Below are positions 1,060 through 31,214 of a DNA stretch of 32,000 nt, piece by piece. This DNA is from Halobacteriales archaeon QS_4_66_20 (GTDB lineage Archaea; Halobacteriota; Halobacteria; Halobacteriales; Haloarculaceae). Below the pieces are notes generated by a model. The model did not search any database. It was not told the origin of the DNA and saw nothing but the letters and a program-made list of their open reading frames with translations. The stretch spans positions 60,358 through 92,357 of the forward strand of contig PXRK01000040.1 in assembly GCA_003021015.1 (NCBI GenBank), written 5' to 3'. Made by a program: the position numbers and the translations under genes. Numbering within the stretch: position 1 is the stretch's first letter; every line of letters starts with the position of its first letter.

Positions 1060-1793
1060 TTACAGCCGCAGGACGTCGGACTCCGCCCAGAGCGGGTCAA
1101 ACGTCTCCTGAACGTTGGTCGCGAACTCGGTGTCCTTGAGGTTGATCAGCGCGAACAGCTCGCGGGCGTCAAGCGGGTGGGGGACCTCGATGCAGACCTC
1201 GTGGTGGTCGAGCAGTTCGAAGGTGGTCGACACCTGCTCGTTCGTGCGGACCTCGAAGGGTGCAGCAGGACGGAGATGGTGACGCCGCGCTCCAGCGCCT
1301 CCTCGAGTTCGTCACCGATCCGCTCGCCCGCGGCCTTCAGATCGACCGTCGAGGTGGTGCCCGAGCCGACGAACACGATCTCGTCGTTGGCGGCGGCGAT
1401 CCGCTCGGCGAGCAGGTCGACGGCCTCCTCGTCGCCCAGCGCGGCGGTCCAGAACGGCTCCTCGACGGGTTCGGCGATCTCCAGCTGTTGTTCGAGTTCT
1501 TCGGCGATCTCCTCGTACTGGGTGATCCTCTCCTCCAGCTCCTTGCGCTTGTCCGCGAGCAGCCGGTCGAGCGCCGTCTCCGGCTCGACGGCGACGTACT
1601 TCTTTGGCCGGCTGGCCGCCTGACTCCTGACGAGGTTTTTCGTCTCCAGGCTGTTCAGCACGTCGTAGATCCGTCCCATCGGGACGTCGCTCGACCGCGA
1701 GAGCTCCTTTGCCGTCGTCGCCCCGGTCTGGAGCAGCGATCGGTACGCGCGGGATTCGTACTCCGAGAGACCGAGATCCCTGAGACTGGCCAT
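1060..1793 (-). pseudogene. TrmB-family transcriptional regulator, interrupted by a 1-nt frameshift near 1258-1260
   Basis: The N-terminal part MASLRDLGLSEYESRAYRSLLQTGATTAKELS... is a TrmB wHTH. In track ORF 1146..1844 the tail after ...GVTISVLLH becomes Arg/Ser-rich nonsense. The adjacent frame (1260->1060) reads PFEVRTNEQVSTTFELLDHHEVCIEVPHPLDARELFALINLKDTEFATNVQETFDPLWAESDVLRL-stop, a normal acidic C-terminal domain. The span is 734 nt, one short of a multiple of 3. Confidence 0.75.
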
Positions 1794-1895
1794 TACGGGT
1801 ACCGTCTCGCTGCCGTGGTATAAACTCACCGGGTGTTTATTCACGTTGCCTCGGGCCAGGGTGGCCGAGGCGCATCGCCGGGCATACTGTTCCAG

Positions 1896-3587
1896 TCACC
1901 CGTCGCCAGTCAGCAGCGATTCCAGTTCGGCCGGTGAGTCGACGCGATCATCCTCGACGCCGTCGGTTACGACGCGCGCCTCACCGCGCGTCAGGTCCTG
2001 GGAGTCGGACCCGTCGTCGCTGCCGAGGGCGTGGCCGGCGGTGGCGGCGGCGTTGTGGTCGCTCGCCACGAGCGGCGCGACGACCGTCTCGTGGTCGGCC
2101 AAGCGGAGCGCGGCGCGGTGGAGGTCGCTGCCCGGCTCGGTCGCGACCTGGATGCAACGGGGCTCCTGCAGGCGGGCGGCGACCGTCGCGTAGCCCGCCA
2201 CCTCGACGCCCATCCGCTCGCCCGCGCCGGCGAACGCCTCGACGGCCCGGCGGGCCGCTCGTCGGTAGCGGTCGTCGCCGGTGAGCAGCGCCAGGTCGAG
2301 CAGCGCGTCGGCAGCCTCGACGGCCGAATCCAGCGGATAGAGTGGGCGGTCGAGGAGCCCGGGGCCCTCGGCAGGCCCGTCACAGAACGCCCCCTCGCCG
2401 GTCTGGAGCTGTTCGACTGTCCAGTCGGCGACGGCGACGACGGGCCCGGGTTCGCCCAGCACCTCCCAGGAGGTCGTGAGGCCGGCGAGCAGGCGGGCCT
2501 GGTCGAGCAACAGACCGGACTCGCCGCTATCGTCGCCGTCGCGGTAGTGGGTGACCTCGCCACCGTCGACGAGGTGCTCACAGACGTACTCGCGGGCCTG
2601 GCGGGCGTACCGCGTCGCGTCGGCGTCGTCGGTGTAGGCGACGTACCGCAGCAGGGCGTCGACGGCCAGCCCGTTGCGGTCCGCAAGGACGGTGTCGTCG
2701 ACGCTCGGCGGGTCGGCGTCCTCGCGGTCGGCGGGTTCGAGGGTGAAGTACGATTCGTCGCCGCCCTGGCTGGCGCCGACGGCGTCGCCGGTCCACAGCG
2801 TCGTGGTCAGGAACTCGACGCCGCGTTCGGCGGCCTCGCGGTACGAGTCCTCGCCGGTGTAGCGGTAGCCGTAGGCGAACGCCCGTACGAGGGCGGCGTT
2901 CTCGTCGGCGAGTTTCTCCCGGCGGGCGCCGCCCCAGTTTCGGTTGCGCGCGTAGCGGTAGAACCCGCCGTCGTAGGTGTCCAGCAGGTGGGTCTGGATG
3001 GCTTCCAGCGTCCGGGTGGCCTGGTCGGGCGCCCGGACGAGTGCGAATTCGATCGTACGAGGCAGCGGGAACTTGACGCCGGAGCCCCAGCCGCCGAACT
3101 CCTCGTCGAAGGTGCCCAAAAGCTGTTCGACCATGTGCTCCTCGATCCGGGCGTCGATGTCGCCCGCCGGCGTCGGGTCGTCCCGCAGTGCTCGGGGGAT
3201 CGACCCCGCCTCCTCCCCGTTGCTGTCCCACGTCTTGCGGACGCTGTCGAGGATGCCCCGGAAGCCGTCGACGCCGAGGTGGGTGGCACCGGTCAGCACT
3301 TTTCCGGAGGGTGTGAGAAAGACAGTCGAGGGAAACCCGCCCATGTTGTAGCGTTCGCGGACTCGGGGGTGGCGGTCGGCGTCGACGCGCACGGGAACGA
3401 AGCCGTCGTTGATGTTCGCGGCGATGCGCGGTTCGTCGTACGTGGTGGTGTCCATCTCCCGGCACTCCGCGGACCACGACGTGACAAGGGCGAGTAGCAC
3501 TGGTTTGGCCGCCCGGTCGGCGGCGTCGAAGGCCTTCTGGCCCCACTCGCGCCACTGGACTTTCGTCGCGTCCGCGCTCTCGGTCAT
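1896..3587 (-). CDS. Thioredoxin-domain / DUF255 (YyaL-like) protein
   Basis: It has a thioredoxin-like N-terminus (KPVLLALVTSWSAEC, FVPVRVDADRHPRVRERYN, GGFPSTVFL) followed by a long helical repeat region. The start is taken at MTESADATKVQW; the track start at 3623 lies in the MITE terminus. Confidence 0.75.
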   Translation of the reverse strand: MTESADATKVQWREWGQKAFDAADRAAKPVLLALVTSWSAECREMDTTTYDEPRIAANINDGFVPVRVDADRHPRVRERYNMGGFPSTVFLTPSGKVLTGATHLGVDGFRGILDSVRKTWDSNGEEAGSIPRALRDDPTPAGDIDARIEEHMVEQLLGTFDEEFGGWGSGVKFPLPRTIEFALVRAPDQATRTLEAIQTHLLDTYDGGFYRYARNRNWGGARREKLADENAALVRAFAYGYRYTGEDSYREAAERGVEFLTTTLWTGDAVGASQGGDESYFTLEPADREDADPPSVDDTVLADRNGLAVDALLRYVAYTDDADATRYARQAREYVCEHLVDGGEVTHYRDGDDSGESGLLLDQARLLAGLTTSWEVLGEPGPVVAVADWTVEQLQTGEGAFCDGPAEGPGLLDRPLYPLDSAVEAADALLDLALLTGDDRYRRAARRAVEAFAGAGERMGVEVAGYATVAARLQEPRCIQVATEPGSDLHRAALRLADHETVVAPLVASDHNAAATAGHALGSDDGSDSQDLTRGEARVVTDGVEDDRVDSPAELESLLTGDG

Positions 3588-3621
3588 ATCCGTAGTTGGT
3601 TTCTGGTAGTTACACCTCTTC

Positions 3622-3892
3622 ATACTGTCGGACGTGACTCTGTGGAATGGTCAGACACGCAAATCGGTGTATACAGTCAGACGTGATTCATACTGGTGGC
3701 TGTAATTCTTTTACTCGCCACTCTCTGCTACCTGAGGATACAGACCCTTTCCGCCTGGATTCTCAATTCGAGTTTTCACGTACTTACAGCCACCAGTATC
3801 AGTGAAGCTATGCCGTCCCAAATCCCGTTGTTCGGGGCATGACATAGCCGATGGACTGTCCTGGCACTGAACGGAGTCACGTCTGGCTGTAT
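3622..3892. mobile_element. Family-B MITE-like composite: solo left end (3622-3660) plus complete copy (3671-3892)
   Basis: The left ends are atactgtcggacgtgactctgtgg (3622) and atacagtcagacgtgattc (3671). The reverse complement of the right end at 3892 is atacagccagacgtgactcc. The first 45 nt match the left arm of the copy at 19514. Confidence 0.65.
3690..3799. mobile_element. Family-C 110-bp TIR element nested in the family-B copy
   Basis: There is a perfect 16-bp inverted repeat: atactggtggctgtaa (3690-3705) and ttacagccaccagtat (3784-3799). The interior is about 46% GC. It shares the ATAC..GTAT termini and size class of family A. Confidence 0.55.
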
Positions 3893-3913
3893 ATGCACAC
3901 AAAAAGCGGTGCG

Positions 3914-3919
3914 TTAAAA
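3914..3919 (+). promoter_or_regulatory. Candidate TATA box for the amidohydrolase gene
   Basis: gcgTTAAAAcac is centred about 27 nt upstream of the ATG at 3944. Confidence 0.3.
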
Positions 3920-3943
3920 CACTCGGAGGGCGAGACTGGAACT

Positions 3944-4960
3944 ATGCTTCTCGAGGGGACCATCCTCAGGGGGCGCTCGTTTCAGCCGATCGAGGGCCGG
4001 ATCGTCGTCGAGGACGGCCGGATCGAGGCGATCGAGGAGAGCGATGCGCGCAGCGACGACATTATTCTTCCGGCGTTCGTCAACGCCCACACCCACGTCG
4101 GGGATTCGATCGCGAAGGAGGCAGGCGAAGGGTTGACCCTCGAGGAACTCGTCGCGCCGCCGGACGGGCTCAAACACCGGCTGCTCGCGGAGGCCGATCG
4201 GTCGGAACTGGTCGACGCGATGGCCGAGACCCTCTCGTTCATGGAAGCTAACGGTACGGCAGCGTTTATCGAGTTCAGGGAGGGCGGCGTCGAGGGGGTC
4301 GAGGCCATCGAGGAGGCACTGCGCGGTGTCGACGTCGAATCGGTCGTCCTCGGCCGGGAATCGATCGAGGCGATGGAACGGAGCGACGGGTTCGGTGCGA
4401 GCGGCGCCAACGACGGCGAGTTCTCGCGGGAGCGTAACGCGACCGCTCGGGAGGGGAAGCTGTTCGGCATCCATGCCGGGGAGGTCGACAGCTCCGACAT
4501 CAATCCCGCGATGGATCTGGACCCGGACTTCCTCGTCCACATGGTCCACGCCGAGGAGCTCCACCTCGAACGGGTGGCAGACAGCAACATCCCGGTAGTG
4601 GTCTGTCCCCGGTCGAACGCAGTCACGGACGTGGGGCTGCCGCCGGTGAGCGACATGCTGGACGCGACGACGGTCGCGCTCGGGACGGACAACGTCATGC
4701 TCAACAGCCCGTCGATGTTCCGCGAGATGGCGTTCACCGCGAAGCTGACTGACGCCTCGACGGCCGACGTGCTCCGGATGGCGACGATCAACGGCGCGGA
4801 AATCGCCGGCCTGAACTGCGGGCTGATCGAGGAGGGCCGTGATGCACGGCTCGTCGTCCTCGACGGGACCTCGCCGAACCTCTCCGGCGCGAAAGATCCC
4901 TGCCGGGCGGTCGTCCGGCGGGCCGGCGTCGACGACATCAAGGACGTAATCAGGCCCTGA
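3944..4960 (+). CDS. Amidohydrolase-superfamily protein (chlorohydrolase/deaminase-like)
   Basis: It has the metal-binding motif PAFVNAHTHVGDS, then HAGE and ALGTDNVM. The start is taken at MLLEGTILRG downstream of the MITE. Confidence 0.8.
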   Translation: MLLEGTILRGRSFQPIEGRIVVEDGRIEAIEESDARSDDIILPAFVNAHTHVGDSIAKEAGEGLTLEELVAPPDGLKHRLLAEADRSELVDAMAETLSFMEANGTAAFIEFREGGVEGVEAIEEALRGVDVESVVLGRESIEAMERSDGFGASGANDGEFSRERNATAREGKLFGIHAGEVDSSDINPAMDLDPDFLVHMVHAEELHLERVADSNIPVVVCPRSNAVTDVGLPPVSDMLDATTVALGTDNVMLNSPSMFREMAFTAKLTDASTADVLRMATINGAEIAGLNCGLIEEGRDARLVVLDGTSPNLSGAKDPCRAVVRRAGVDDIKDVIRP

Positions 4961-5014
4961 ACGCCCCTGGATTTATCGGTGGGGGTCGAGTAACGTCCGT
5001 GTGAGTGGTGCACA

Positions 5015-5461
5015 GTGTACGACCACATTCTGGTCCCGACGGACGGCTCGGCAGGGATGGAGACCGTCATCGAGCACGCCGTCTCGCTGGCCCAACTCCA
5101 CGGCGGGACCCTCCACGGCCTGTACGTCGTCAACACCGCGGCGCTGACCGATCTCCCGATGGAGTCCTCCTGGGAGGGCGTCAGCCAGGCGCTCGAACAG
5201 GAGGGCCAGGTCGCGCTCAACGAGGTCGAACAGCTGGCCCGTGACGTCCCGGTCGAGGTGACCCGGATCGAGGGGTCGCCCGCCCGGGAGATCGTCTCCT
5301 ACGCCGAGGACAACGACGTGGACGTGATCGTCATGGGAACACACGGCCGCTCGGGCGTGGACCGACTGCTGCTGGGCAGCGTCGCTGAACGGGTCGTCCG
5401 GTCCTCCAGCGTCCCCGTGTTGACGATCCGCGTGGCGGGGAACCGCGAGGACGACTCCTGA
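5015..5461 (+). CDS. Universal stress protein (UspA family)
   Basis: MYDHILVPTDGS...DVIVMGTHGRSGVDRLLLGSVAERVVRSSSVPVLTI. GTG start. Confidence 0.9.
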   Translation: MYDHILVPTDGSAGMETVIEHAVSLAQLHGGTLHGLYVVNTAALTDLPMESSWEGVSQALEQEGQVALNEVEQLARDVPVEVTRIEGSPAREIVSYAEDNDVDVIVMGTHGRSGVDRLLLGSVAERVVRSSSVPVLTIRVAGNREDDS

Positions 5462-6442: not shown

Positions 6443-8293
6443 TCACTCGATCACGAACAGCACGTCGCCCATGTCGACGCTGTCGTCCTCGGCGACCGTG
6501 ATCTCGGCGATCGTCCCGCCGTACTCCGCGACGACGTCGTTCTCCATCTTCATCGCCTCCAGCACGCAGAGCACGTCGCCGGCCTCCACCTCGTCGCCCT
6601 CCTCGACGGTGGTTTCGAGGATCGTACCCTGCATCTCGGCTGTGACCGTCTCACCGTCGGTCGCCGCCGCGCTGCCCTCGCTGGCCCCCTCGTCCGGGCC
6701 GGCGCGGCCGGGGCGGTTCGCGGAGCCGCCGGCGTCGATCTCCCCGACGTCGAGGGCGGGAGCGCCGTGCTCCTCCAGTTCGACCTCGAAGCGCCTGCCG
6801 TCGACCTCGACGGTGAACTCGCGGGTGGTCGACTCCTCGCCGTCCGCCTCCGCCGAGGTTTCAGTCCCCCACCGTTGTTGGGCCTCCTCGATCCGGCTGT
6901 CGGCGAGCTGTTCGTCGAGGTACTTCGTGGTGTGCTTGCCGTCGAGGAACGTCCCGTCGGTGAGCATCAGGCGGTGGAAGGGGATGATCGTCACGACGCC
7001 CTCGATGTCGTACTCCGAGAGCGCGCGCAGCGACCGGTCGATGCACTCCGCGCGGTCGCTGCCGTGGACGATCAGCTTCGCGATCATCGAGTCGTAGTCG
7101 GTGACGAGTTCGTCGCCCTGCCGGAGCGCGTCGTCGATCCGGACGCCGATGCCGCCCGGCGGATCGTACGTGTCCAGGACGCCGCCCGTCGCCGGCGCGA
7201 ACTCCTGGGCGGCGTTCTCCGCGTTGATCCGGAACTCCATCGCGTGACCCTCCAGGTCGACCGACTCCTGGGAGAAGCTGAGCTCCTCGCCCGCTGCGAC
7301 CCTGAGCTGCCAGTTCACGATGTCGACGCCCGTCAGCTCCTCGGTGACGGTGTGTTCGACCTGGATCCGCGTGTTGACCTCCAGGAAGTAGAAGTTCGTG
7401 TCGGATCCCAGCGGCTCGTCGGGATCCCGGCCGGGGTCCTCCTCGACGAGGAACTCCACGGTCCCGGCGTTCGTGTAGCCAGCGGCGTCGACACCGCGGC
7501 GGGCCGCCTCGCCGATCTCCTCGCGGAGGTCGTCGGACAGCGCCGGCGAGGGCCCTTCCTCGATCACCTTCTGGTGGCGCCGCTGCAGCGAGCAGTCACG
7601 CTCGCCGAGGTGCCGGACGTTGCCGTGGTGGTCCGCGAGGATCTGGATCTCGACGTGACGGGGGTGTTCGAGGTACCGCTCCAGGTACACCGAGTCGTTG
7701 TCGAAGTAAGCCTCGCCCTCCCGCTTCGCGCTCTCCAGTTCGTCCGCGGCCTGGCCGGCGTCCCGGACTACTTTCATGCCGCGGCCACCGCCGCCGCCTT
7801 CGGCTTTGATCGCCACGGGATAGCCGTGTTCGTCACCGAACGCCGTGACCTCCTCGGGGTCGGTGACGGGGTCCGTCGTGCCGGGAACGATCGGGACGTC
7901 GGCCTCCTGCATGATCTGGCGGGCTTGCGTCTTCTCGCCGAGCTGTTCCATGCCGTCGCTGTCGGGCCCGACCCAGGTCACGCCCTCTGTCGCCTCCACC
8001 TCGGCGGCGAAGTCGGCGTTCTCCGCGAGGAAGCCATAGCCCGGGTGGATCGCGTCTGCATCCGCCCGCTGGGCAGCGTCGATGATCGCGTCGTGGTCCA
8101 GGTACGAGTCGGCGGCCCGCGCGGGGCCGACGTTGTACGCTTCGTCGGCGTACCGGACGTGGCCGCCGTCGCTGTCGGCATCGCTGTAGACGGCGACGGT
8201 TTCGATGCCCATGTCGTGGCAGGCCCGCATCACCCGGACGGCGATCTCGCCGCGGTTCGCGACCAGTACCTTCTCGAACGGTTTCGCTGTCAT
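6443..8293 (-). CDS. pccA: Biotin carboxylase fused to biotin carboxyl carrier domain (acyl-CoA carboxylase alpha subunit)
   Basis: [18 protein letters not shown], the ATP-grasp [10 protein letters not shown], and a C-terminal biotinyl domain with EAMKMEN. The start at MTAKPFEKV forms an ATGA overlap with the upstream small gene. Confidence 0.9.
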
Positions 8294-11568: not shown

Positions 11569-11760
11569 TACTGCCGGACGTGATTCCGTTACTACCCGGA
11601 TAGCACTCAGCATCTGATAGTGATTATTGTGAGTCGTTCCGGTATCGACCGCGGTACTGCGTGCGGTCGACCCGGTAAACAGTCACAATAATCACTATGA
11701 GACAACCGAAAACCCCAGTCCGAGCATCACTCGGAGTAACATAGTCACGTCCGGCAGTAT
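11568..11760. mobile_element. Family-B MITE-like element (193 bp) carrying a nested family-A element
   Basis: The left end is atactgccggacgtgattccgttact. The reverse complement of the right end is atactgccggacgtgactatgttact, which matches at 16/16 terminal nt and extends to about 30. Confidence 0.7.
11617..11698. mobile_element. Family-A short variant (82 bp), nested
   Basis: The TIRs are atagtgattattgtgag and (reverse complement) atagtgattattgtgac. The interior is itself a hairpin: ccggtatcgaccgc...gcggtcgacccgg. Confidence 0.7.
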
Positions 11761-15321: not shown

Positions 15322-15714
15322 ATGGCGACGAAGCTACCCGCCCGTGATCCGGTCCAGCGCAGAGACGGACGTACAGAGGCCCTCGACGAGGAAACCGGTG
15401 CCCAGGCGGCGTCCGGTGAGGAGTTGCTCGAACTGCTCGGCGACGAGTACACGCGTCGCGTCCTCCAGGCAGTCGTCTCGGAACCCAAAAGCGGACGTGA
15501 GGTCGTCGAGGAAGCGTCCGTGTCGAAGGCGACCGCGTACCGCCGACTGGAGACCCTCCAGGAAGCAGGGCTCGTGGAGTCGAGGACCGTGTTCGACCCA
15601 GACGGTCACCACCACGAGCAGTTCCGGGCGATCCTCGACGGCGTGACAGTCGAACTGCGAAACGAGAGCGTCACGACGACGATCCATACCGACGCATCCC
15701 CCGCTGACGATTGA
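15322..15714 (+). CDS. Winged-helix (ArsR-like) transcriptional regulator
   Basis: ELLELLGDEYTRRVLQAVVSEPKSGREVVEEASVSKATAYRRLETLQEAGLVE. ATG at 15322; a GTG at 15301 is also possible. Confidence 0.75.
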   Translation: MATKLPARDPVQRRDGRTEALDEETGAQAASGEELLELLGDEYTRRVLQAVVSEPKSGREVVEEASVSKATAYRRLETLQEAGLVESRTVFDPDGHHHEQFRAILDGVTVELRNESVTTTIHTDASPADD

Positions 15715-15899
15715 CGAGCGGCGCCTTTCTGGCGTCGATGTGGCGGCGCCGGGCAGAACCGCTGGCGCTCCCCCTGCTGGACGTCGCCGTCCGCGACGAT
15801 GGCCCTAGAATCCCGGAGCACGAACAGGCAGTCCTCCTGGAAGGCGAGGAGACGCCGCTGAGCCACGGGAGCGGCCTCGGGCTCTGGCTCGTCTACTGA
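15711..15899 (+). pseudogene. Histidine-kinase remnant (part of the HATPase_c domain only)
   Basis: LDVAVRDDGPRIPEHEQAVLLEGEETPLSHGSGLGLWLVY contains degenerate G1 and intact G2 boxes. There is no HisKA or N box. The track start is a TTG. The C-terminus is cut by the family-A terminus, which supplies the TGA. Confidence 0.7.
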
Positions 15900-15988
15900 T
15901 ACTGATTGTTGTGACTCGTTACCTCGGGTATTCGCCAGACGCCAGTTTCGGGACGTGAAACCGCCGCTACTGCGATGTCGTGCCGAAA
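15899..15988. mobile_element. Family-A element, reverse orientation, one TIR missing
   Basis: atactgattgttgtgactcgttacctcgggtattcgccagacgccagtttcggg... aligns with the reverse complement of 28360-28470. It diverges after ...gtgccgaaa into a local inverted duplication (gtgaaaccgccgcta / tagcggcggttcgtcac). Confidence 0.65.
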
Positions 15989-16141
15989 GTAAATAGCGGC
16001 GGTTCGTCACGAAAACTCTGTATAGCTAGGCTCCACCACTAAGAGTGGGGAGCTACAAGAAGACGTTAGCATGAGCGCACCGGCCCACGACCGAACCGGC
16101 GACGACTCCGTCGTTCGGGCCACTGTCCGCCGAGCCAGCAT

Positions 16142-17224
16142 ATGATCGAGGGGAACGACTGTCGGGACGCCGTCTCGATCGATCGCTACCCGGGGCCAGT
16201 GTGCAGCTACACCTGCCGGAACGGGGAACCGGTGATCGAGCGGGCAAACGAGGCCTTCGAGGGGGCGTTCGGGGCGGTCGCGGCGGGCGACGCGCTCGCG
16301 CCCGTGTTCGAGGAGTACGGGATCGAACCGATCGACGGCCCGGCGCCGCTGTCAGCGATGATGAACGAGGATCGCACCCAGCAGGTCCGCGTCGAATCGC
16401 CACCGGAGACGGGGGCGGGGGCGAACAGGTACCTGGCGCAGGTGATCGCACCGGACGGCGAGCGACCGGGGCACCTGCTGTTGACTGACGCCAGCGCCGG
16501 CGACGGCGACTTCGGCGTCGACAGGGTCGCGAGCGTGATCAGTCACGACCTCCGCAACCCGCTCGACGTCGCCAAGGCGCGACTCAGGGCCGGACGGGAG
16601 CTGGACTCCGGGGAGGATCACCTCGAACACGTCGAACAGGCCCACGACCGCATGGAGCGGATTATCCAGGACGTGCTGACGCTCGCGCGCGGCGAGGAAG
16701 TGATCGAACCGGAGGGGACGGTCGACCTCGGGGCAGTCGCCGAGGACGCCTGGGAGACCGTCGAGACGAACGGCGCGTCGCTGTCGGTCACCGATTCGTT
16801 GCCGTCGACAGTCGCGGACCGCGACCGGGTCAAGCGGCTGTTCGAGAACCTGTTTCGCAACGCCGTGGAACACGGTTCCACGAGCCGGCAGCCTCCAGCT
16901 GACGACGCCGTCGAGCACAGCTCCACGGGCAGTGGGCCCTCTGCCGACAACGACGACGAACACGGCGGCGACGAAATCACGATCACGGTCGGCCGCATCG
17001 AAGACGGGACGACGGGGTTCTACGTCGCGGACGACGGACGGGGCATCCCGGCGGACCGCCGGGAGGCCGTCTTCAGGCCGGGGTACAGTTCCGACGAGCA
17101 CGGCACGGGGCTCGGTCTCGCTATCGTCCGGCGGATCGCGGACGTCCACGGGTGGTCGGTCTCGGTGACGGACGCCGCGGGCGGCGGCGCACGGTTCGAG
17201 TTCGTCGGCGTCGAACCTGCCTGA
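16142..17224 (+). CDS. Sensor histidine kinase (PAS-like N-terminus, HisKA, HATPase_c)
   Basis: The boxes are H box SVISHDLRNPL, N box FENLFRNAVEHG, G1 VADDGRGIP and G2 GTGLGLAIV. The stop TGA overlaps the family-A terminus. Confidence 0.9.
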   Translation: MIEGNDCRDAVSIDRYPGPVCSYTCRNGEPVIERANEAFEGAFGAVAAGDALAPVFEEYGIEPIDGPAPLSAMMNEDRTQQVRVESPPETGAGANRYLAQVIAPDGERPGHLLLTDASAGDGDFGVDRVASVISHDLRNPLDVAKARLRAGRELDSGEDHLEHVEQAHDRMERIIQDVLTLARGEEVIEPEGTVDLGAVAEDAWETVETNGASLSVTDSLPSTVADRDRVKRLFENLFRNAVEHGSTSRQPPADDAVEHSSTGSGPSADNDDEHGGDEITITVGRIEDGTTGFYVADDGRGIPADRREAVFRPGYSSDEHGTGLGLAIVRRIADVHGWSVSVTDAAGGGARFEFVGVEPA

Positions 17225-17334
17225 TAGTGATTGTTGCGACTCTTTCCCGCCGGGGAGTCACAATTCGTGGGCTTCAGCCCGCGAACCAACCGTTCACGCG
17301 TCGTGGTGCCGAAAATAATCGCAACAATCACTAT
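17224..17334. mobile_element. Family-A element, 111 bp, variant interior (reverse orientation)
   Basis: The outer ~33 and ~31 nt match family A, with the TIR atagtgattgttgCga in both arms. The central ~47 nt is unrelated to the other copies. Confidence 0.7.
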
Positions 17335-19513: not shown

Positions 19514-19699
19514 ATACACCCGGACGTGACTCTGTTAGATGTCAGGACACGATATCCACGAGTATCGACCCTGACAGTCCCGAGTTGTGTCGAGATGACT
19601 GAGGTGAATCACGTCTCTCCTCGCGGGGGTCGGTTGCGAACCGCTCGGCAGCCCGAGTTGTGTCGAGATGACTGAGGTGAATCACGTCCGGGTGTCTAT
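19514..19699. mobile_element. Family-B MITE-like element (186 bp) with duplicated right arm
   Basis: The left end is atacacccggacgtgactctgtt. The reverse complement of the right end is atagacacccggacgtgattc. An internal 37-bp perfect direct repeat lies at 19579-19615 and 19652-19688. Confidence 0.65.
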
Positions 19700-19743
19700 C
19701 GTGGTTCATCGCCCCGGGCTCCGGCGGGACAGGCTTGAAGGTC

Positions 19744-19805
19744 GGTCGGCAACAGTTAAACATCGGCCCTGCTTTCTGGGAGGTGTGAGCCGGATTCTCA
19801 TCGGG
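19744..19805 (+). repeat. 62-bp direct repeat, copy 1 (duplicate of the PiT promoter and first 7 codons)
   Basis: It matches 20798-20859 at 60 of 62 positions. It contains TTAAAC (19756-19761) and GTG (19785), the latter opening only a 20-codon ORF. Confidence 0.85.
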
Positions 19806-19828
19806 TTGACCAGCGCCTCGACGTCGGC

Positions 19829-20714: not shown

Positions 20715-20797
20715 GTGTTCGGGGTGGTGGCCGGGCGACTTCAACGTTCAGTTCGGCGAGAACTGGTTAGAGGTGGAGGCGTTGGTGCTGCTGGGAC

Positions 20798-20859
20798 GGT
20801 CGGCAACAGTTAAACATCGGCCACGCTTTCTGGGAGGTGTGAGCCAGATTCTCATCGGG
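20798..20859 (+). repeat. 62-bp direct repeat, copy 2 (functional PiT promoter and start)
   Basis: TTAAAC at 20810-20815 is centred about 27 nt upstream of the GTG start at 20839. Confidence 0.85.
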
Positions 20860-22014
20860 CTGGGAGTTCTCGTGGTCGTCTTCGTCGGCTACAACATCGG
20901 CGGGTCGACGACCGGCCCGGCGTTCGGGCCAGCCGTCGGTTCGGCCGTCATCTCGAAGGTGGCGGCCGCGGCGCTGATGGCGGTGTTTTTCTTCGTCGGT
21001 GCGATCACGCTCGGCCGCAGGGTCGTCGAGACGCTCGGCTCGGATCTCGTCACGTCGACCGCCATCTTCACGCTCGAAGCCAACGTCGTCGTGCTCTTTT
21101 TCATCGGCGGCGCGCTGTTCATCGGCAACTACGCCGGCGTCCCGGCGTCGACGTCGATGACGGCCGTCGGTGCGATCGCCGGGCTCGCGCTGTCCGCCGA
21201 CGCGCTCAACTGGACGGAGATGAGCCAGATCATGGCCTGGTGGATCGTCGCCCCGGTGATCGCCTTCTGGGTGTCCGGCGTCATCGGCCGGTACTTCTAC
21301 CCGCGACTCAACCGCCGCGTCGCGCTCGTCCAGAGCGAGGGGCCGTTGATCGAACTCGACCGCTCGGCTGCGGTGCCGCGGCCGGTCCCGGGCCCGAACA
21401 CGACGCGCCGGGAGTTCGCCGGCACCGTGATCGTGGTCGCGATCGGCTGTCTCATGGCGTTCTCCTCAGGCACCTCCAACATCGCCAACGCGATCGCACC
21501 GCTGGTCGGGAGCGACACCATCGGGATGAACGAGGGGATTGTCCTCGGGTCGGCCGCGGTCGCCATCGGCGCGTTCACGATCGGCCGCAAGACGCTCGAC
21601 ACACTCGGGAACGACCTGACTGCACTGCCGCTGACGGCGTCGATCGTCGTTGCGACCGTCAGCGCGACGATCGTGACGCTCCTCTCGTCGATCGGCATCC
21701 CCGCGAGTTTCGTCATCGTCGCCACGATGAGCATCATCGGCCTGGGCTGGGGGCGCGCGACGCGGACGACGACGGTCGAATCGATGCGCGACGGCGAACC
21801 GACCGCGGTCTCGCCGGCCTCCCTCGCCGCCGACGAGGGCGGCGAGGAACTGCCCGATATCGGCGAGGAGAACCCCGAGGAGCTCCCCTCCGCGGGCGAA
21901 CTGTTCAACCCTTCCACCACCGTTCGGGTCGTGCTGATGCAGAACGTCGTCCCCGTGATCGCCACCGTCGCGGCCTATCTGACGTTCACCTTCGTGCCGG
22001 TGTTCGGCCTGTGA
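20839..22014 (+). CDS. PiT-family inorganic phosphate transporter
   Basis: It is a multi-TM protein with the paired PiT signatures GYNIGGSTTGPAFGPAVGS and SGTSNIANAIAPLVGS. The GTG start gives VSQILIGLGVLVV. Confidence 0.85.
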   Translation: MSQILIGLGVLVVVFVGYNIGGSTTGPAFGPAVGSAVISKVAAAALMAVFFFVGAITLGRRVVETLGSDLVTSTAIFTLEANVVVLFFIGGALFIGNYAGVPASTSMTAVGAIAGLALSADALNWTEMSQIMAWWIVAPVIAFWVSGVIGRYFYPRLNRRVALVQSEGPLIELDRSAAVPRPVPGPNTTRREFAGTVIVVAIGCLMAFSSGTSNIANAIAPLVGSDTIGMNEGIVLGSAAVAIGAFTIGRKTLDTLGNDLTALPLTASIVVATVSATIVTLLSSIGIPASFVIVATMSIIGLGWGRATRTTTVESMRDGEPTAVSPASLAADEGGEELPDIGEENPEELPSAGELFNPSTTVRVVLMQNVVPVIATVAAYLTFTFVPVFGL

Positions 22015-22075
22015 GCGTCTTACGACGGGGACCCCGAGGCGATAGCCTATTGTCCTGGCGGCACCCACGGTACCC

Positions 22076-23512
22076 ATGGTCACGCTCGCCTTCGACGGTC
22101 GAACCGGTGCGAGTGGGGACATGCTGCTGGGTGCGCTGCTGGCCGCCGGCGCCGACCGGTCGGCGCTGGACGTCCTGGAGCGAGAGCTAGGTGTCCGGTA
22201 CGATGTCGCCGAGACGACCCGGTGTGGCATCACCGCGACGCGGGTCGAGGTGGTGCTGGCAGACGAATCCACCAGTCACGATCGTTCCCACGACCAGTCC
22301 GACGGGGGACATTCTCAGGATCGTTCCCACGACCAGTCTGACGGGGGTCATTCTCAGGATCATTCCCACGACCAGTCTGACGGGGGTCGTTCTCAGGATC
22401 ATTCCCACGATCACTCTGACGAAGTACATTCCCACGATCACTCTGACGAAGTACATTCCCACGAAGGAACCGAGGGACACGCTCACGAACACACACACGC
22501 TGAGGGACAGGGGCCGGAACGCAGCTATGGCGAAGTCGTCGACCTCGTGGAGTCGATGGGGCTGACAGGGACGGTGGAGGACACGGCCCTGGCTATCTTC
22601 GAATTACTGGGGGAGGCAGAGGCGAGCGTCCACGGAACGGACCTCGAATCGACGCAGTTCCACGAGGTCGGCGCCGACGACGCGATCGCGGACGTGGTGG
22701 GCGTCGCGCTGTTGCTCGCGGACCTCGACCCCGACAGGGTCGTTACCACGCCGCTCGCGGCCGGGGGCGGAGAGGTGTCGATGAGTCACGGCATCTACCC
22801 GGTCCCGACGCCTGCCGTGGTCGAACTCGCCGAACGCGCCGACTGGTCGCTGCGGGGCGGACCCGTCGAAACGGAGCTCCTGACGCCGACGGGCGCCGCG
22901 GTGCTCGCCCACGTCGCGGCGGGCGTCGAGCGGCTTCCGTCCCTCAATATCGAGCAGTCGGGGTACGGCGCCGGGGCAAAATCCTTCGACCGGCAGCCGA
23001 ACGTCCTCCGGGCGGTCGTCGGCGAAGAGGCGGAGCGACTCAGACAGGAGCCGATCACGGTGCTGGAGACGAACCTCGACGATGCCAGCCCGGAGATCGT
23101 CGGCAGCCTGCAGGAGACGCTCGTCGACGCTGGCGCGCTCGACGTCACCGTGGTGCCGACGACGATGAAGAAGTCACGGCCGGGCCATCTCCTGAAGGTG
23201 ATCGTTCCGCCGGCCGACGCGGCGCAGGTCGCGCGGGCGCTGGCGGCCGAGACGGGAACCCTCGGCGTGCGCGAACACGGCAGCGGGCACCGCTTCGTCG
23301 CCGACCGCTCCGTCGAATCCGTCACCGTCGACGTCGAGGGTCGCTCCTGCGAACTGGACGTCAAGATCGGACGGTTCGGCGGCGATCCGGGCGAGGTGTT
23401 CGACGTCAGCGCGGAGTACGACGACGCGCTCCGGGTCGCCGGCGAGACCGACCTCCCCGTCCGGGAGGTTTGTCGGCGTGCAGAAAACCGTGCTCGCTCT
23501 CGATTTCTCTGA
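22076..23512 (+). CDS. larC: LarC-family nickel insertion protein (DUF111) with expanded His/Asp-rich tract
   Basis: MVTLAFDGRTGASGDMLLGALL, FHEVGADDAIADVVG and LLTPTGAAVLA, plus a C-terminal domain GTLGVRE. The His-rich insert spans residues ~66-145. Confidence 0.85.
   Translation: MVTLAFDGRTGASGDMLLGALLAAGADRSALDVLERELGVRYDVAETTRCGITATRVEVVLADESTSHDRSHDQSDGGHSQDRSHDQSDGGHSQDHSHDQSDGGRSQDHSHDHSDEVHSHDHSDEVHSHEGTEGHAHEHTHAEGQGPERSYGEVVDLVESMGLTGTVEDTALAIFELLGEAEASVHGTDLESTQFHEVGADDAIADVVGVALLLADLDPDRVVTTPLAAGGGEVSMSHGIYPVPTPAVVELAERADWSLRGGPVETELLTPTGAAVLAHVAAGVERLPSLNIEQSGYGAGAKSFDRQPNVLRAVVGEEAERLRQEPITVLETNLDDASPEIVGSLQETLVDAGALDVTVVPTTMKKSRPGHLLKVIVPPADAAQVARALAAETGTLGVREHGSGHRFVADRSVESVTVDVEGRSCELDVKIGRFGGDPGEVFDVSAEYDDALRVAGETDLPVREVCRRAENRARSRFL
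22280..22462 (+). repeat. Coding tandem repeats: 3 x 39 bp followed by 2 x 27 bp
   Basis: The 39-bp units are at 22280-22318, 22319-22357 and 22358-22396 (gatcRttcccacgaccagtcYgacggggg...). The 27-bp units are at 22409-22435 and 22436-22462 (gatcactctgacgaagtacattcccac, identical). Confidence 0.9.
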
Positions 23513-27616: not shown

Positions 27617-28249
27617 CTACCCGGCGACTCCCGCTCGCGGCGCCGCGGGGTCGACGTTCAGCACGCGCATCCGACCCGCGAGCAGGCCGAACAGGAGGCC
27701 AGTAAAGTGTGCGATCAGTGCGACGCCGGGGCTGGCGGTCAGCACCGTGACCGCGGCTGCCACGATGGTGAACACCAGAATCGAGAGCCAGAACGGGATC
27801 TGGACGAAGCCCGCGACGCCGGTCGAGAGGCGGTTGCTGGCGAGCAGGTAGCCCAGGAGTGCGAACACCGCGCCGCTGGCGCCCAGCACGCCCGCCGTGG
27901 CGTCGGCGCCGATGACGGGGAACCCCGCCAGCGCGTCGCTGATGACGATCTGCGAGACGCCCGCCAGCGCCCCGCTGACGATGAAAAACAGGTGAAATCG
28001 GGTGCGGGTTGTCGCCCTCGCGACGGGCCAGCCGAACAGCACGAGGGCGATTGCGTTCGAGACCAGATGTCCGATACCCCCGTGAGCGTAGACGCTGGTC
28101 ACGACCGTCCACGGGTTCTCGGTGATCGGCGGCGAAAGGATGAACAGCGCACCCAGGAGGTCAGCGAGCGCAGTCACGACCTGTGCGACGTAGACGAGGA
28201 TGAACAGCAGGAGGACTTCGAGTATCGGGCTCCCCGATCGGTCAACCAT
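27617..28249 (-). CDS. Rhomboid-family intramembrane serine protease
   Basis: It has HGGIGHLVSNAIAL and the catalytic GASGAVFALLGY, with multiple TM segments. Start at MVDRSGSPILE; the longer track ORF runs into the MITE nest. Confidence 0.85.
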   Translation of the reverse strand: MVDRSGSPILEVLLLFILVYVAQVVTALADLLGALFILSPPITENPWTVVTSVYAHGGIGHLVSNAIALVLFGWPVARATTRTRFHLFFIVSGALAGVSQIVISDALAGFPVIGADATAGVLGASGAVFALLGYLLASNRLSTGVAGFVQIPFWLSILVFTIVAAAVTVLTASPGVALIAHFTGLLFGLLAGRMRVLNVDPAAPRAGVAG

Positions 28250-28295
28250 ACGACTAGTAGGGCTGATTCGTTCATTATACTGTCGGATGTGACTC

Positions 28296-28358
28296 TGTGG
28301 ATTATGACTGTTTACCGGGTCGACCACACGACTGCGTGCGGTCGATTCCGGAACGACG
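28296..28358. repeat. Family-A short variant, degenerate copy lacking intact TIRs
   Basis: gactgtttaccgggtcgacc...ggtcgattccggaacgac matches the arms of 11617-11698 in inverted orientation (37 of 38 arm positions). Confidence 0.6.
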
Positions 28359-28359
28359 C

Positions 28360-28470
28360 ATAGTGATTGTTGTGAGTATTTTCGGCACCACATCGCAGTA
28401 GCGGCGGTTTCACGGCCCGAAACTGGCGTCTGGCGAATACCCGGCGGTAAAGAGTCACAACAATCACTAT
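28360..28470. mobile_element. Family-A MITE-like element, full 111-bp copy (forward orientation), nested
   Basis: It runs atagtgattgttgtgagt...gagtcacaacaatcactat. A further partial TIR, atagtgattgt, follows at 28472-28482. Confidence 0.75.
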
Positions 28471-28578
28471 CATAGTGATTGTATCACCATGACGTGTCAC
28501 AGAGTCACGTCCGGGTGTATATGAGACCGAAACCAACTTTGATTAGTCCCGGTGTCGAACTCACAGAGAGGGAAGACG

Positions 28579-29718
28579 ATGGATATTGCTGACATAGCTA
28601 CTCCGGAGTACGTGGAGATCGACGCCGACAAGCGCCTCTCGAAAGTTCGATCGATCTTCGAGCGCGAGAACCCCAAGGGGATTGTCGTCACGGAGGACGG
28701 CGAGTATGCGGGCATCATCAACCAGAAACAGCTGCTGCAGTCACATATCCAGGACGATGCGAAAGTCCGCGGGATGATCCGCTCGGCGCCGCGGGTCAAC
28801 CGCCGCGACGACGTCCGCGAGGTCGCTCGCGTGCTGGTCGAGAGCGGAGCGAAGCTGGCTCCCGTCTTCGAGGGCGATAATCTCTGGGGCGTCGTGACCG
28901 AGGACGCCATCTTGGAGGCGGTGCTAGAGAACCTCGACGCACTCGACGTCTCGGAGATCTACACCGACGACATCGTGACCGTCACGACGGACACGAGCAT
29001 CGGGACAGTGATCAACCGCCTGCGCGAGCACGGCGTCTCCCGGCTGCCGGTGCTCGACGACAACGGCCAGCTAACCGGCATGGTCACCACCCACGACATC
29101 GCCGACTTCGCCGTCCGTAACATGGAGCGCCAGCAGAAAGGCGACCGCTCGGGCGACATCGACCGGATTCTCGACATCCGCGTATACGACATCATGAACA
29201 GCCCGGTCGAGACGACCACGCCGACCGAATCGGTCCGGGACGCCGTCACGCGGATGCTCGACAACGACTACGCTGGACTCGTGGTCACACCCGAGGACGA
29301 CGGGACCGTCGTGGGCATCATCACGAAGACGGACGTGATGCGCGCGCTGACGTTCACAGAGGAGGAGCACCTGGACGTCCAGATCACGAACATCACGCTG
29401 CTGGACGCGATCACGCGCGACGAGATCCGCCAGCGCATCGAGGGCGTCTCCGAAAAGTACCAGAAGATGCACGTTCAGCACGCCCACGTCCGCTTTCACA
29501 AGCACAAGGAACGGCTGCGGGGCACGCCACTGATCCAGTGTCAGATCCGGCTGCGGACGAACCGCGGGCAGGTCGCCGGCTCCGGCGAGGGGTACGGCGC
29601 CGACGCCGCGTTCGGGGTGGCGATCGACAAACTCGAACGGCGCGTGCTCGAACTCAAGGGCGTCCAGGCCGACGAAGAGTACCGCGGCCAGCTGCTCCGG
29701 AAGCTGGGCGAACTCTGA
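28579..29718 (+). CDS. Four-CBS-domain protein fused to an HPF/RaiA-like (S30AE) C-terminal domain
   Basis: Four CBS-like repeats occupy residues ~12-265 of the track ORF. The C-terminal part is LDVQITNI..DEIRQRIEGVSEKY..AHVRFHKHKE..QCQIRLRTNRGQVAGSGEGYGADAAFGVAIDKLERRVLELKG. It aligns by eye, element by element, with E. coli HPF as I remember it (QLNITG..., ...AAIDGLIDKLARQLTKHK). Start at MDIADIATPEY. Confidence 0.8.
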   Translation: MDIADIATPEYVEIDADKRLSKVRSIFERENPKGIVVTEDGEYAGIINQKQLLQSHIQDDAKVRGMIRSAPRVNRRDDVREVARVLVESGAKLAPVFEGDNLWGVVTEDAILEAVLENLDALDVSEIYTDDIVTVTTDTSIGTVINRLREHGVSRLPVLDDNGQLTGMVTTHDIADFAVRNMERQQKGDRSGDIDRILDIRVYDIMNSPVETTTPTESVRDAVTRMLDNDYAGLVVTPEDDGTVVGIITKTDVMRALTFTEEEHLDVQITNITLLDAITRDEIRQRIEGVSEKYQKMHVQHAHVRFHKHKERLRGTPLIQCQIRLRTNRGQVAGSGEGYGADAAFGVAIDKLERRVLELKGVQADEEYRGQLLRKLGEL

Positions 29719-31094: not shown

Positions 31095-31214
31095 GTGTCA
31101 ACGTGTGGCTGTTCGCGCCAAAGGCGTTTCCATTAACGTGCATGGGCCACGGCGACCCGCTGACCAGCGGGGACAGCGTCTCCCCACCCGGGGAGTCCTC
31201 GCCGATGGGATTAG

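Follow-up and report, generated by a model that had tools for sequence, protein, structure and literature searches.

Small non-coding derivatives of the IS630/Tc1-mariner group of transposons are found in very different hosts, where they include the plant Stowaway elements, the pneumococcal RUP with its partner IS630-Spn1, and the cyanobacterial Nezha. In Archaea, a miniature inverted-repeat transposable element (MITE) of this origin is known from Methanosarcina mazei, an 89-bp sequence related to ISMma9 (PMC3852290). Haloarchaea harbor small mobile repeats (SMRs), described in Haloquadratum walsbyi as HqIRS41, 42, 43 and 55 (Dyall-Smith et al. 2011, PMC3119063), which were reported to make no target duplication, to have inverted terminal repeats (ITRs) unlike those of any transposon, and to target palindromes of IS605-type elements and PATEs; the same genome contains IS630-type elements (PMC3119063). 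Duplications of 3 bp are characteristic of the IS1031 subgroup of IS5, which has a TNA target and exclusively a 3-bp direct repeat (PMC12016507), and occur in eukaryotic transposons of the ITm group, namely Fot (TAA) and Zator (PMC7386202). Here we describe a 244-bp block of repeats (positions 28277-28520) between a rhomboid gene and a CBS-domain gene, in a 32,000-nt stretch ("the window") of contig PXRK01000040.1 from Halobacteriales archaeon QS_4_66_20. A preliminary description had taken this block for a nest of MITEs, and rightly so: it consists of short non-coding elements with terminal inverted repeats (TIRs) and target duplications, present in many copies and polymorphic. We consider it very probable that the nest is a stack of non-autonomous haloarchaeal MITEs of the IS630/Tc1-mariner group, moved in trans by IS630 transposases.

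The window contains 18 occurrences of the generic terminus ATASTGNNNGNNGTGAYTC, where shuffled sequences would lead one to expect 0.28, and therefore the repeats of the nest, which comprises four of the matches (28277 and 28360, and 28452 and 28502 on the minus strand), are real and not a product of chance. A census of related loci (designated with L-numbers; L003 is a metagenome contig and L015 a contig of the metagenome-assembled genome (MAG) SW_10_66_29) identified 62 complete copies in discrete size classes of 79-80 and 107-109 bp. The following families can be distinguished:

Family A: 108-109 bp, 40 copies, with at least four unrelated cores.
Family As: 79-80 bp, 6 copies.
Family B: 107-108 bp, 10 copies.
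Family B': 108 bp, seen only with a nested insertion.
Family C: 108 bp, 6 copies.
Family D: 108-110 bp.
Family E: 109 bp (consensus).
Family F: 109 bp, from a brine metagenome.

No open reading frame (ORF) fits into 79-80 or 107-109 bp, and these elements have no coding capacity. All families start with TA(C/G)(T/A)G, followed by variable positions 6-12 and then by a GT(G/A)A(C/T)T block; the family termini read TAGTGATTGTTG (A), TACTGTCGGACG (B), TACTGGTGGCTG (C) and TACAGCCAGACG (D), and the subterminal block of the A and B ends can be written as GTGAYTC or TCTTTACC. The true boundaries of family A are TAGTG...CACTA, 109 bp apart; the full A copy of the nest had been given as 111 bp long (28360-28470), a length that included the outer A/T of the target duplication. 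The block AGAGTCAC, followed by 9 nt and TAT, had been reported as common to the right ends of A and B. Followed by 9 nt and TA, it is indeed conserved across other copies, but in family A it is confined to one end (GTGACTCT in 29 of the 40 copies, never at the other end), and it also occurs in the ends of B, D and E. As a separate observation, despite their unrelated cores the elements fall into two sharp length classes about 29 bp apart, one of about 108-109 bp (A, B, B', C, D, E, F) and one of about 78-80 bp (As plus a C-like copy in L187).

These elements insert at 5'-C-TSA-G-3' (S being G or C) and duplicate the central 3 bp. Identical 3-bp flanks surround 54 of the 62 complete copies (TGA in 27 cases, TCA in 24, TAA in two and TTA in one), with C preceding in 38/62 and G following in 44/62. 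The T-S-A duplication is found in families A, As, B, B', C and F, while the D/E class, with TACAG or TACAC termini, has TA on both sides in all ten copies (including the E end of the nest, scored in L015). Three clean empty sites confirm the 3-bp duplication: the copy at 17225-17333 of the window is replaced by a single TGA in L055, the one at L015:757-920 by TCA in the window near 31180, and the one at L026:5345 by TGA in L007. The repeats are thus short, non-coding and bounded by TIRs whose stem of 15 or more bp is invariant across 22 copies; they duplicate their target and show presence/absence polymorphism at the three empty sites and at the A copy of the nest; and for A, As, F, B and C the TIRs are akin to those of a transposase-encoding element, D and E being without a match so far.

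The nest itself has the following parts:

28275-28277: TTA, next to the left terminus; it fits the T-N-A duplication of a TACTG-type (B) end, as judged from the sequence and the flank statistics of B ends.
28278-28301, plus strand: family B fragment of 24 nt, end type 1 (TACTGTCGGATGTGACTCTGTGGA), identical in 23/24 nt to the start of complete 108-bp B copies (L038:1484, L079:6354).
28302-28357, minus strand: As body, an 80-bp element without nt 1-6 and 11-13, aligned with complete 79-80-bp As copies (window 11618-11697, L054:1310, L058:3095).
28358-28360: GCA, degenerate left TCA duplication of the A insertion; L003 and L015 have GAC-TCA-CAATAATCAC here.
28361-28469, minus strand: complete 109-bp family A MITE (TAGTG..CACTA), with 105/109 positions as in other A copies; L003 and L015 lack it (comparison with 96-98% identical contigs).
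28470-28472: TCA, right copy of the duplication, common to the abutting remnant, from the sequence and from end-TNA-end abutment elsewhere.
28473-28482, plus strand: 10-nt remnant of an A-type left end (TAGTGATTGT), from the sequence; missing in L003 and L015.
28483-28489, minus strand: As right tip ATCACCA, contiguous with the As body in L003 and L015 (..CACAATAATCACCA).
28490-28492: TGA, target duplication of As in E (E positions 28-30, TCA on the E strand), from the E consensus ..GTGACACG-TCA-GGACA...
28493-28519, minus strand: family E fragment of 27 nt, end type 1 (TACACCCGGACGTGACTCTGTGACACG in minus-strand reading), matching window 19515, L067:7780 and L040:5894.
28520-28521: TA flank of the E-type end, as at 10/10 D/E-class flanks.

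The E consensus used for the As junction was built from L040, L067, L029 and window 19515. The B sequence breaks off abruptly at the As junction (after 28301), the As body and its right tip are split by the A insertion, and the remnant at 28473-28482 forms with 28460-28472 a perfect palindrome of 23 nt. The three A-family pieces of the preliminary description are all present. The "degenerate short copy" among them, however, belongs to the separate 79-80-bp family As and has its right tip beyond the A insertion, and the extra left TIR, placed at 28472-28482, is properly the 10 nt from 28473 to 28482.

One B element hosting these pieces, as had been proposed, does not agree with the two ends of the block: the left one (28278-28301) is of family B, and the right one (28493-28519) of family E, of the TA-flanked class with TACACCC.. 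termini. The nest is a chimera of a B end, As and an E end, produced by several insertions and at least one deletion. A single intact composite B-type MITE, transposing as a unit with A-family passengers, is a rather improbable alternative. The outer termini are complementary at 20/24 positions and both have T.A-type flanks, and composites do propagate as units elsewhere, D being found at the same position inside C at no fewer than four loci. Against this, both outer ends are of the same type (type 1) and come from two families with different flank classes (TNA and TA), only 24 nt of B and 27 nt of E remain of the supposed host, and neither the B/As nor the As/E junction was found at any other locus among all loci searched.

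The insertion polymorphism that the preliminary description had anticipated is seen at the A copy, which is missing in L003 and L015; these keep the B-As-E arrangement, and their flanking DNA is 95-98% identical to the window. At the insertion point they have CGGAACGAC-TCACAATAATCAC(C/T)A, the canonical intact right TIR of As, which could not be regenerated by excision; the ancestral state is therefore that without A. The window, L001 and L002 belong to a lineage that has recently gained the A copy, which is the youngest layer of the nest. The order of insertion would be E, As, B with a deletion, and finally A. As reconstructed from the E consensus, a 109-bp E element would first have inserted into a TA upstream of the CBS gene, and an 80-bp As element would have followed into a TCA 27 nt inside E. 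A B element would then have landed beside E, and a deletion of about 180 bp would have joined its first 24 nt to the truncated As; the fused B-As-E state is common to all haplotypes. In the last step, limited to one sub-lineage, the 109-bp A copy would have entered a TCA in the right-hand TIR of As; of another A-type end that abutted on it, only 10 nt would have survived trimming, probably within a palindrome.

The window contains no transposase, nor was any found between TIR pairs 140-4000 bp apart in 56 haloarchaeal loci, where the pairs proved to be separate MITEs only, and all-against-all BLAST of the loci did not find a multi-copy insertion sequence (IS). Scans of viral contigs with B/D-type and A-type termini gave only chance matches, and phage records contained no BLAST match to four MITE consensus sequences. 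Plasmid records, searched by BLAST with the MITE consensus sequences, include an A-like copy of 109 bp, flanked by a TGA duplication, from the cultured Halovenus salina JCM 30072. Another plasmid of this strain, NZ_CP112973.1, carries two IS630-family copies, 99.7% identical to each other and bounded as TCA-TAGTGATTAGG..CTAGTCACTA-TCA and TGA-..-TGA (in a longer reading of the ends, TCA-TAGTGATTAGGCAAGTGATTTGC...CCTAGTCACTA-TCA), which combine the terminal octamer of family A with the same 3-bp duplication. The octamer also ends IS630-family elements of other haloarchaea and of brine metagenomes. A transposase-bearing relative with matching ends, which the preliminary description had proposed to look for, was thus found among IS630-family elements. 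The two ORFs of the matching elements contain HTH_32/HTH_33 and DDE_3 domains (Pfam; DDE_3 with E=1e-28 to 1e-34), and RefSeq names the transposases "IS630 family transposase". Homologues are frequent both in hypersaline metagenomes and on plasmids of Halorubrum, Natribaculum, Natrinema, Natrarchaeobaculum, Halocatena, Halococcus and Haloarcula.

Both ends could be read in 19 IS630 elements from eight haloarchaeal genera and metagenomes. Thirteen of them have identical T(G/C)A flanks; in the remaining six, four pair TGA with its complement TCA, and two have TGA/CGA and TGA/TAA. The TGA/TCA pairs could come from inversion between oppositely oriented IS copies. Mixed TCA/TGA flanks were noted in L252 (Natrinema gelatinilyticum), L241, L246 and L248, and in L252 the mismatch extends further, TCTCA-..-TGAGA. 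Another side observation concerns the two-ORF transposase (L238:3003-4072; L243:557-1626), in which about 51 residues, counted by eye, separate the second D (FLDRAG) from the E (NAVE); the spacing typical of IS630/Tc1, DD34-37E, is shorter.

The ends of A and As match the right end of the L247 element, TGA-TAGGGACTAG...TTAATCACTA-TGA, at 19 of the first 25 nt, in register and ungapped (shuffle maximum about 11, P<0.0005); L247 belongs to the ENA project from which the window's own contigs come. The F ends match those of Natronomonas and brine IS elements at 20/25 nt in register (P<0.0005). A second IS630 lineage, the single-ORF type of Haloarcula sinaiiensis, has right and left ends that the B and C ends match with gaps (P<=0.002); it is about 37% identical in protein to the two-ORF lineage and has TGA-...-TGA flanks. 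The B and C ends match the two-ORF lineage poorly. Within the ends, AGAGTCAC occupies the same subterminal positions as the conserved block of the IS ends (..GAATCTTTACC), and may form part of the predicted transposase-binding region. Families A and B are related at the family level, as the preliminary description had supposed, in that they share the terminal architecture and both derive, to judge from sequence, from IS630-family ends. A single transposase serving both, which it had thought probable, is unlikely, since the MITE families track distinct IS lineages, A and As the two-ORF one and B and C the Haloarcula sinaiiensis type. On the mechanism that we propose, MITEs without coding capacity, with TIRs of 20-25 nt that copy the ends of IS630-family elements, would be moved in trans by the HTH and DDE_3 transposases of those elements.

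Several observations weigh against the derivation from IS630. The classical duplication of IS630/Tc1/mariner is TA and not 3 bp (PMC7386202), and neither the TSA families nor the haloarchaeal IS630 elements conform to it, only the D/E class being TA-flanked. The D and E ends are unlike any sampled IS end. In the MAGs closest to the window, no IS630 gene was found in loci centred on MITEs, about 400 kb in all, with the sole exception of a truncated copy in the sister MAG QS_8_69_26, and the specific enzyme that moved the A copy of the nest can be named only as a candidate IS630 type. The A copy does lie at a TCA inside the right TIR of As, but the expected insertion product is only partly seen: the junction is not a clean duplication, the left copy being GCA rather than TCA, and 5 target nt (CAATA) are replaced by the 10-nt remnant. 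The order of the three older steps, moreover, rests on a single surviving arrangement. The irregular junction may be accounted for by a second A-type element that once sat on the shared TCA and was then trimmed, as long palindromes often are; this is suggested by the GCA copy, by the palindrome formed with the remnant, and by abutted end-TNA-end pairs at three other loci (L042, L057, L074).

The T-N-A duplication of 3 bp is also the signature of IS1031 (PMC12016507), and an archaeal IS5-related MITE with a 3-bp duplication has been listed for Methanosarcina (PMC3852290), so that the repeats might be taken for IS5-family MITEs of the IS1031 or PIF/Harbinger-like type. An IS5/IS1031 partner was in fact what we first inferred from the TNA duplication, and it was dropped in favor of the IS630 elements, which have both the matching termini and the same duplication. 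No DDE_Tnp_1 element with matching termini was found in the 56 haloarchaeal loci, the TIRs of the three DDE_Tnp_1 (IS5/IS4-type) elements on the Halovenus salina plasmid are not related to those of the MITEs, and one of the three shows a 9-bp duplication, which makes an IS5 origin very unlikely. The one with the 9-bp duplication (AGTTTAGAC) is 1068 bp long, is bounded by GAGGGTGTCATAGAAG termini and lies at L231:32713-33780 (Halovenus salina plasmid unnamed3); it is unrelated to the MITEs.

It is scarcely probable that the repeats are orphans of the Haloquadratum type, moved by the enzyme of no transposon that shares their TIRs, with a merely convergent or ancestral likeness to IS630 ends. The size classes agree (79-80 bp for HqIRS41, 107-109 bp for HqIRS43 and 103-112 bp for HqIRS42; PMC3119063), both sets have prominent ITRs and prefer other mobile elements as insertion sites, no partner of the SMRs is known in a complete genome (PMC3119063), and a search of the closest MAG loci gave no IS630 copy. 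Yet SMRs were reported without a target duplication, whereas elements of the nest type duplicate TSA, and in-register matches of 19-20/25 to IS630 ends together with an identical duplication are hard to put down to chance. We regard it as plausible that the families of the nest and the Haloquadratum SMRs belong to the same class; a scan of H. walsbyi plasmid PL47 for TIR elements of 75-125 bp found none.

A structural or regulatory role as palindromes (REP-like sequences, terminators or small RNA genes) spread by recombination is extremely improbable, for although the 242-nt block folds far better than its shuffles (z = -6.9, which is what stacked inverted repeats would give) and all copies are intergenic or at gene ends, three loci show precise presence and absence with duplication of 3 bp, the cores of 22 A copies have neither a conserved structure nor covariation, and an Rfam scan of the whole window returned nothing reaching the gathering score. 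In the consensus fold of these 22 diverse copies (RNAalifold) conservation is limited to the 15-bp TIR stem, in which position 3 changes in a coordinated manner from G-C to C-G, and this indicates that selection acts on the ends. Regulatory side-effects are conceivable. A TATAAT at the junction of the left end with its flank (28274-28279), centred about 27 nt upstream of the rhomboid ATG, may be a promoter, and a nearly invariant A/T-rich block (CGAAAATAAT) near one A end may likewise affect expression.

Nesting is not restricted to the locus considered so far. At least ten of the 62 copies lie within other small elements, and new copies land in or beside old ones because good target sites are present both in resident copies and in the duplications that flank them. 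Family B' has two TCTGAG sites, into which As or C inserted independently at four loci (L067, L006 and L017 among them), and this illustrates the target specificity. Family D occupies an identical TA inside C at four or more unrelated loci, which implies that nested composites can spread as units; C::D composites were recorded at L057:1589-1737, 2688-2861 and 7025-7242, at L038:1802-1950 and at L023:5529. Small repeats cover about 4% of the window and most of its intergenic regions, and besides the nest include:

11569-11759: second nest, a 108-bp B' carrying an 80-bp As (11618-11697) with a TGA duplication.
3623-3891: third nest, a B fragment (3623-3671) followed by D (3672-3891) carrying a 108-bp C (3691-3798) with a TCA duplication.
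17225-17333, plus strand: 109-bp A copy of subfamily A2 at the TGA stop codon of a histidine-kinase gene, missing in the orthologous contig L055.
15091-15199, minus strand: 109-bp A copy, common to L055.
19515-19696, plus strand: TA-flanked copy of family E, with 74 bp duplicated internally.

In the copy at 17225-17333 the target was the TGA stop itself (17222-17224), and the stop codon was preserved by the duplication. The 74-bp duplication of the E copy includes a second partial right end. In L055, a contig of the sister MAG, positions 1410-5023 comprise 3.6 kb with two histidine-kinase genes, of which the window keeps only a 180-bp kinase tail at 15714-15996; both boundaries lie at partial A elements, which suggests that the loss was a MITE-associated deletion. 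The 3.6-kb segment was considered as an autonomous element and rejected, as no transposase is encoded beside the two histidine kinases. In L073, what looked like a low-GC ORF flanked by two A copies turned out to be an artefact of a masked N run.

The window has a GC content of about 67% and is a segment of a haloarchaeal chromosome with ordinary housekeeping genes. The nest lies between the following two genes, whose starts had been correctly located:

27617-28249, minus strand: rhomboid-family protease gene (Pfam Rhomboid, E=1e-22), called identically in metagenome contigs L001-L003.
28579-29718, plus strand: gene for a CBS-domain and S30AE/HPF-like protein (Pfam CBS, E=1e-43, and Ribosomal_S30AE).

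The nest begins 28 bp from the rhomboid start codon and ends 59 bp from the start of the CBS gene, and it has extended the divergent intergenic region from 212 bp to 329 bp. An identical CBS protein is encoded by contigs that are 96.7-99% identical to the window and derive from brine or halite metagenomes (ENA and JGI). In 79 metagenome contigs with orthologous loci (60-89% protein identity) the rhomboid neighbour is absent, and they provide no pre-insertion state of the intergenic region. When the combined A/B terminus pattern was compared with species-representative genomes, nearly all matches were to Atacama halite MAGs (Halobacteriales archaeon SW_10_66_29, SW_7_65_23, QS_1_68_17 and QS_9_68_17), with a match also to one Halovenus MAG; two contigs of SW_10_66_29 are 95-97% identical to parts of the window.

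Some further features of the window were also noted. Positions 1-760 have a GC content of 48% in surroundings of 65-70%, with an apparent minus-strand gene running off the window start, and are possibly foreign DNA. At 800-1021 on the minus strand, an ORF of 73 aa without a Pfam match has a CxxC...HH...CxxCH spacing that recalls a small HNH or zinc-ribbon protein. Tandem repeats of 39 and 27 bp at 22276-22470, within gene 22046-23512 (with a Ni_insertion domain in contig L001), vary in copy number among the window, L001, L002 and L003, the indels being multiples of 3 bp. A direct repeat of 69 nt, 93% identical and 1054 bp apart (19740-19808 and 20794-20862), is kept in L001-L003; a glyoxalase gene has one of the copies in its 3' part, and the second copy precedes and overlaps the start of a gene for a PHO4 transporter.

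The history of the nest indicates that the elements are active, or have very recently been so, in a natural population, and that a divergent promoter region was remodelled by them. The very abundant tiny repeats of uncultured Atacama-type Halobacteriales can now be tied to a concrete enzyme family, which makes their spread experimentally testable. An IS630 lineage with a TSA duplication should also aid annotation, as the boundaries and target duplications of haloarchaeal IS630 elements are easily mis-set by one to three bases. In addition, a candidate explanation is offered for the puzzle of the Haloquadratum SMRs, the mobilisation of which has been called enigmatic since 2011, and hairpin-forming, self-nesting repeats are a practical source of assembly and binning breaks and of strain-level indels in halophile metagenomes. 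It is tantalizing, though for the present doubtful, to go further and to suppose that haloarchaeal IS630 transposases in general make staggered cuts of 3 nt at C-TSA-G, that their 80- and 109-bp derivatives are the Haloquadratum SMR class, and that the quantised lengths reflect a constraint of the transpososome or of chromatin on the spacing of the ends. If true, the haloarchaeal enzymes would depart systematically from the TA rule by which IS630/Tc1/mariner is otherwise defined, and a physical limit on the end-to-end distance would underlie the two lengths, about 80 and 109 bp, that recur in at least seven families whose cores are unrelated.

A literature search found no report of a T-S-A duplication for haloarchaeal IS630 elements, nor of these MITE sequences, although absence from the library is not proof of novelty, and a full-text search for the terminal sequences returned only unrelated primers. 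Among the described systems, the SMRs of Haloquadratum resemble the families of the nest in their haloarchaeal host, in the classes of 79-80 and about 107-112 bp, in prominent ITRs, in the possession of several unrelated cores and in insertion into other mobile elements; unlike them, the families of the nest duplicate TSA, have IS630-like ends, and target C-TSA-G, often within their own kind. With the IS1031 subgroup they share the TNA target and the 3-bp repeat, but there the transposase is of the DDE_Tnp_1 type and the TIRs are different, whereas here the matching ends are those of IS630-family elements. Fot and Zator demonstrate that members of the IS630-Tc1-mariner group can leave the TA rule and duplicate 3 bp; they are, however, eukaryotic and belong to other clades, and Fot is specific for TAA, while the haloarchaeal elements are archaeal and have G or C as the central base. 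The closest counterparts are the IS630/Tc1-mariner MITEs, which are likewise non-coding, have TIRs that copy IS630-type ends, depend on an HTH and DDE_3 transposase acting in trans, use a T..A target core, reach high copy numbers and nest. From these the families of the nest differ in duplicating 3 bp (TGA/TCA) at C-TSA-G instead of TA at (C)TA(G), in their discrete lengths of about 80 and 109 bp, in their haloarchaeal host, and in occupying so large a share of the window. They may thus be regarded as IS630-derived MITEs of a known kind, unusual in the 3-bp duplication that replaces TA and in their very high copy density.

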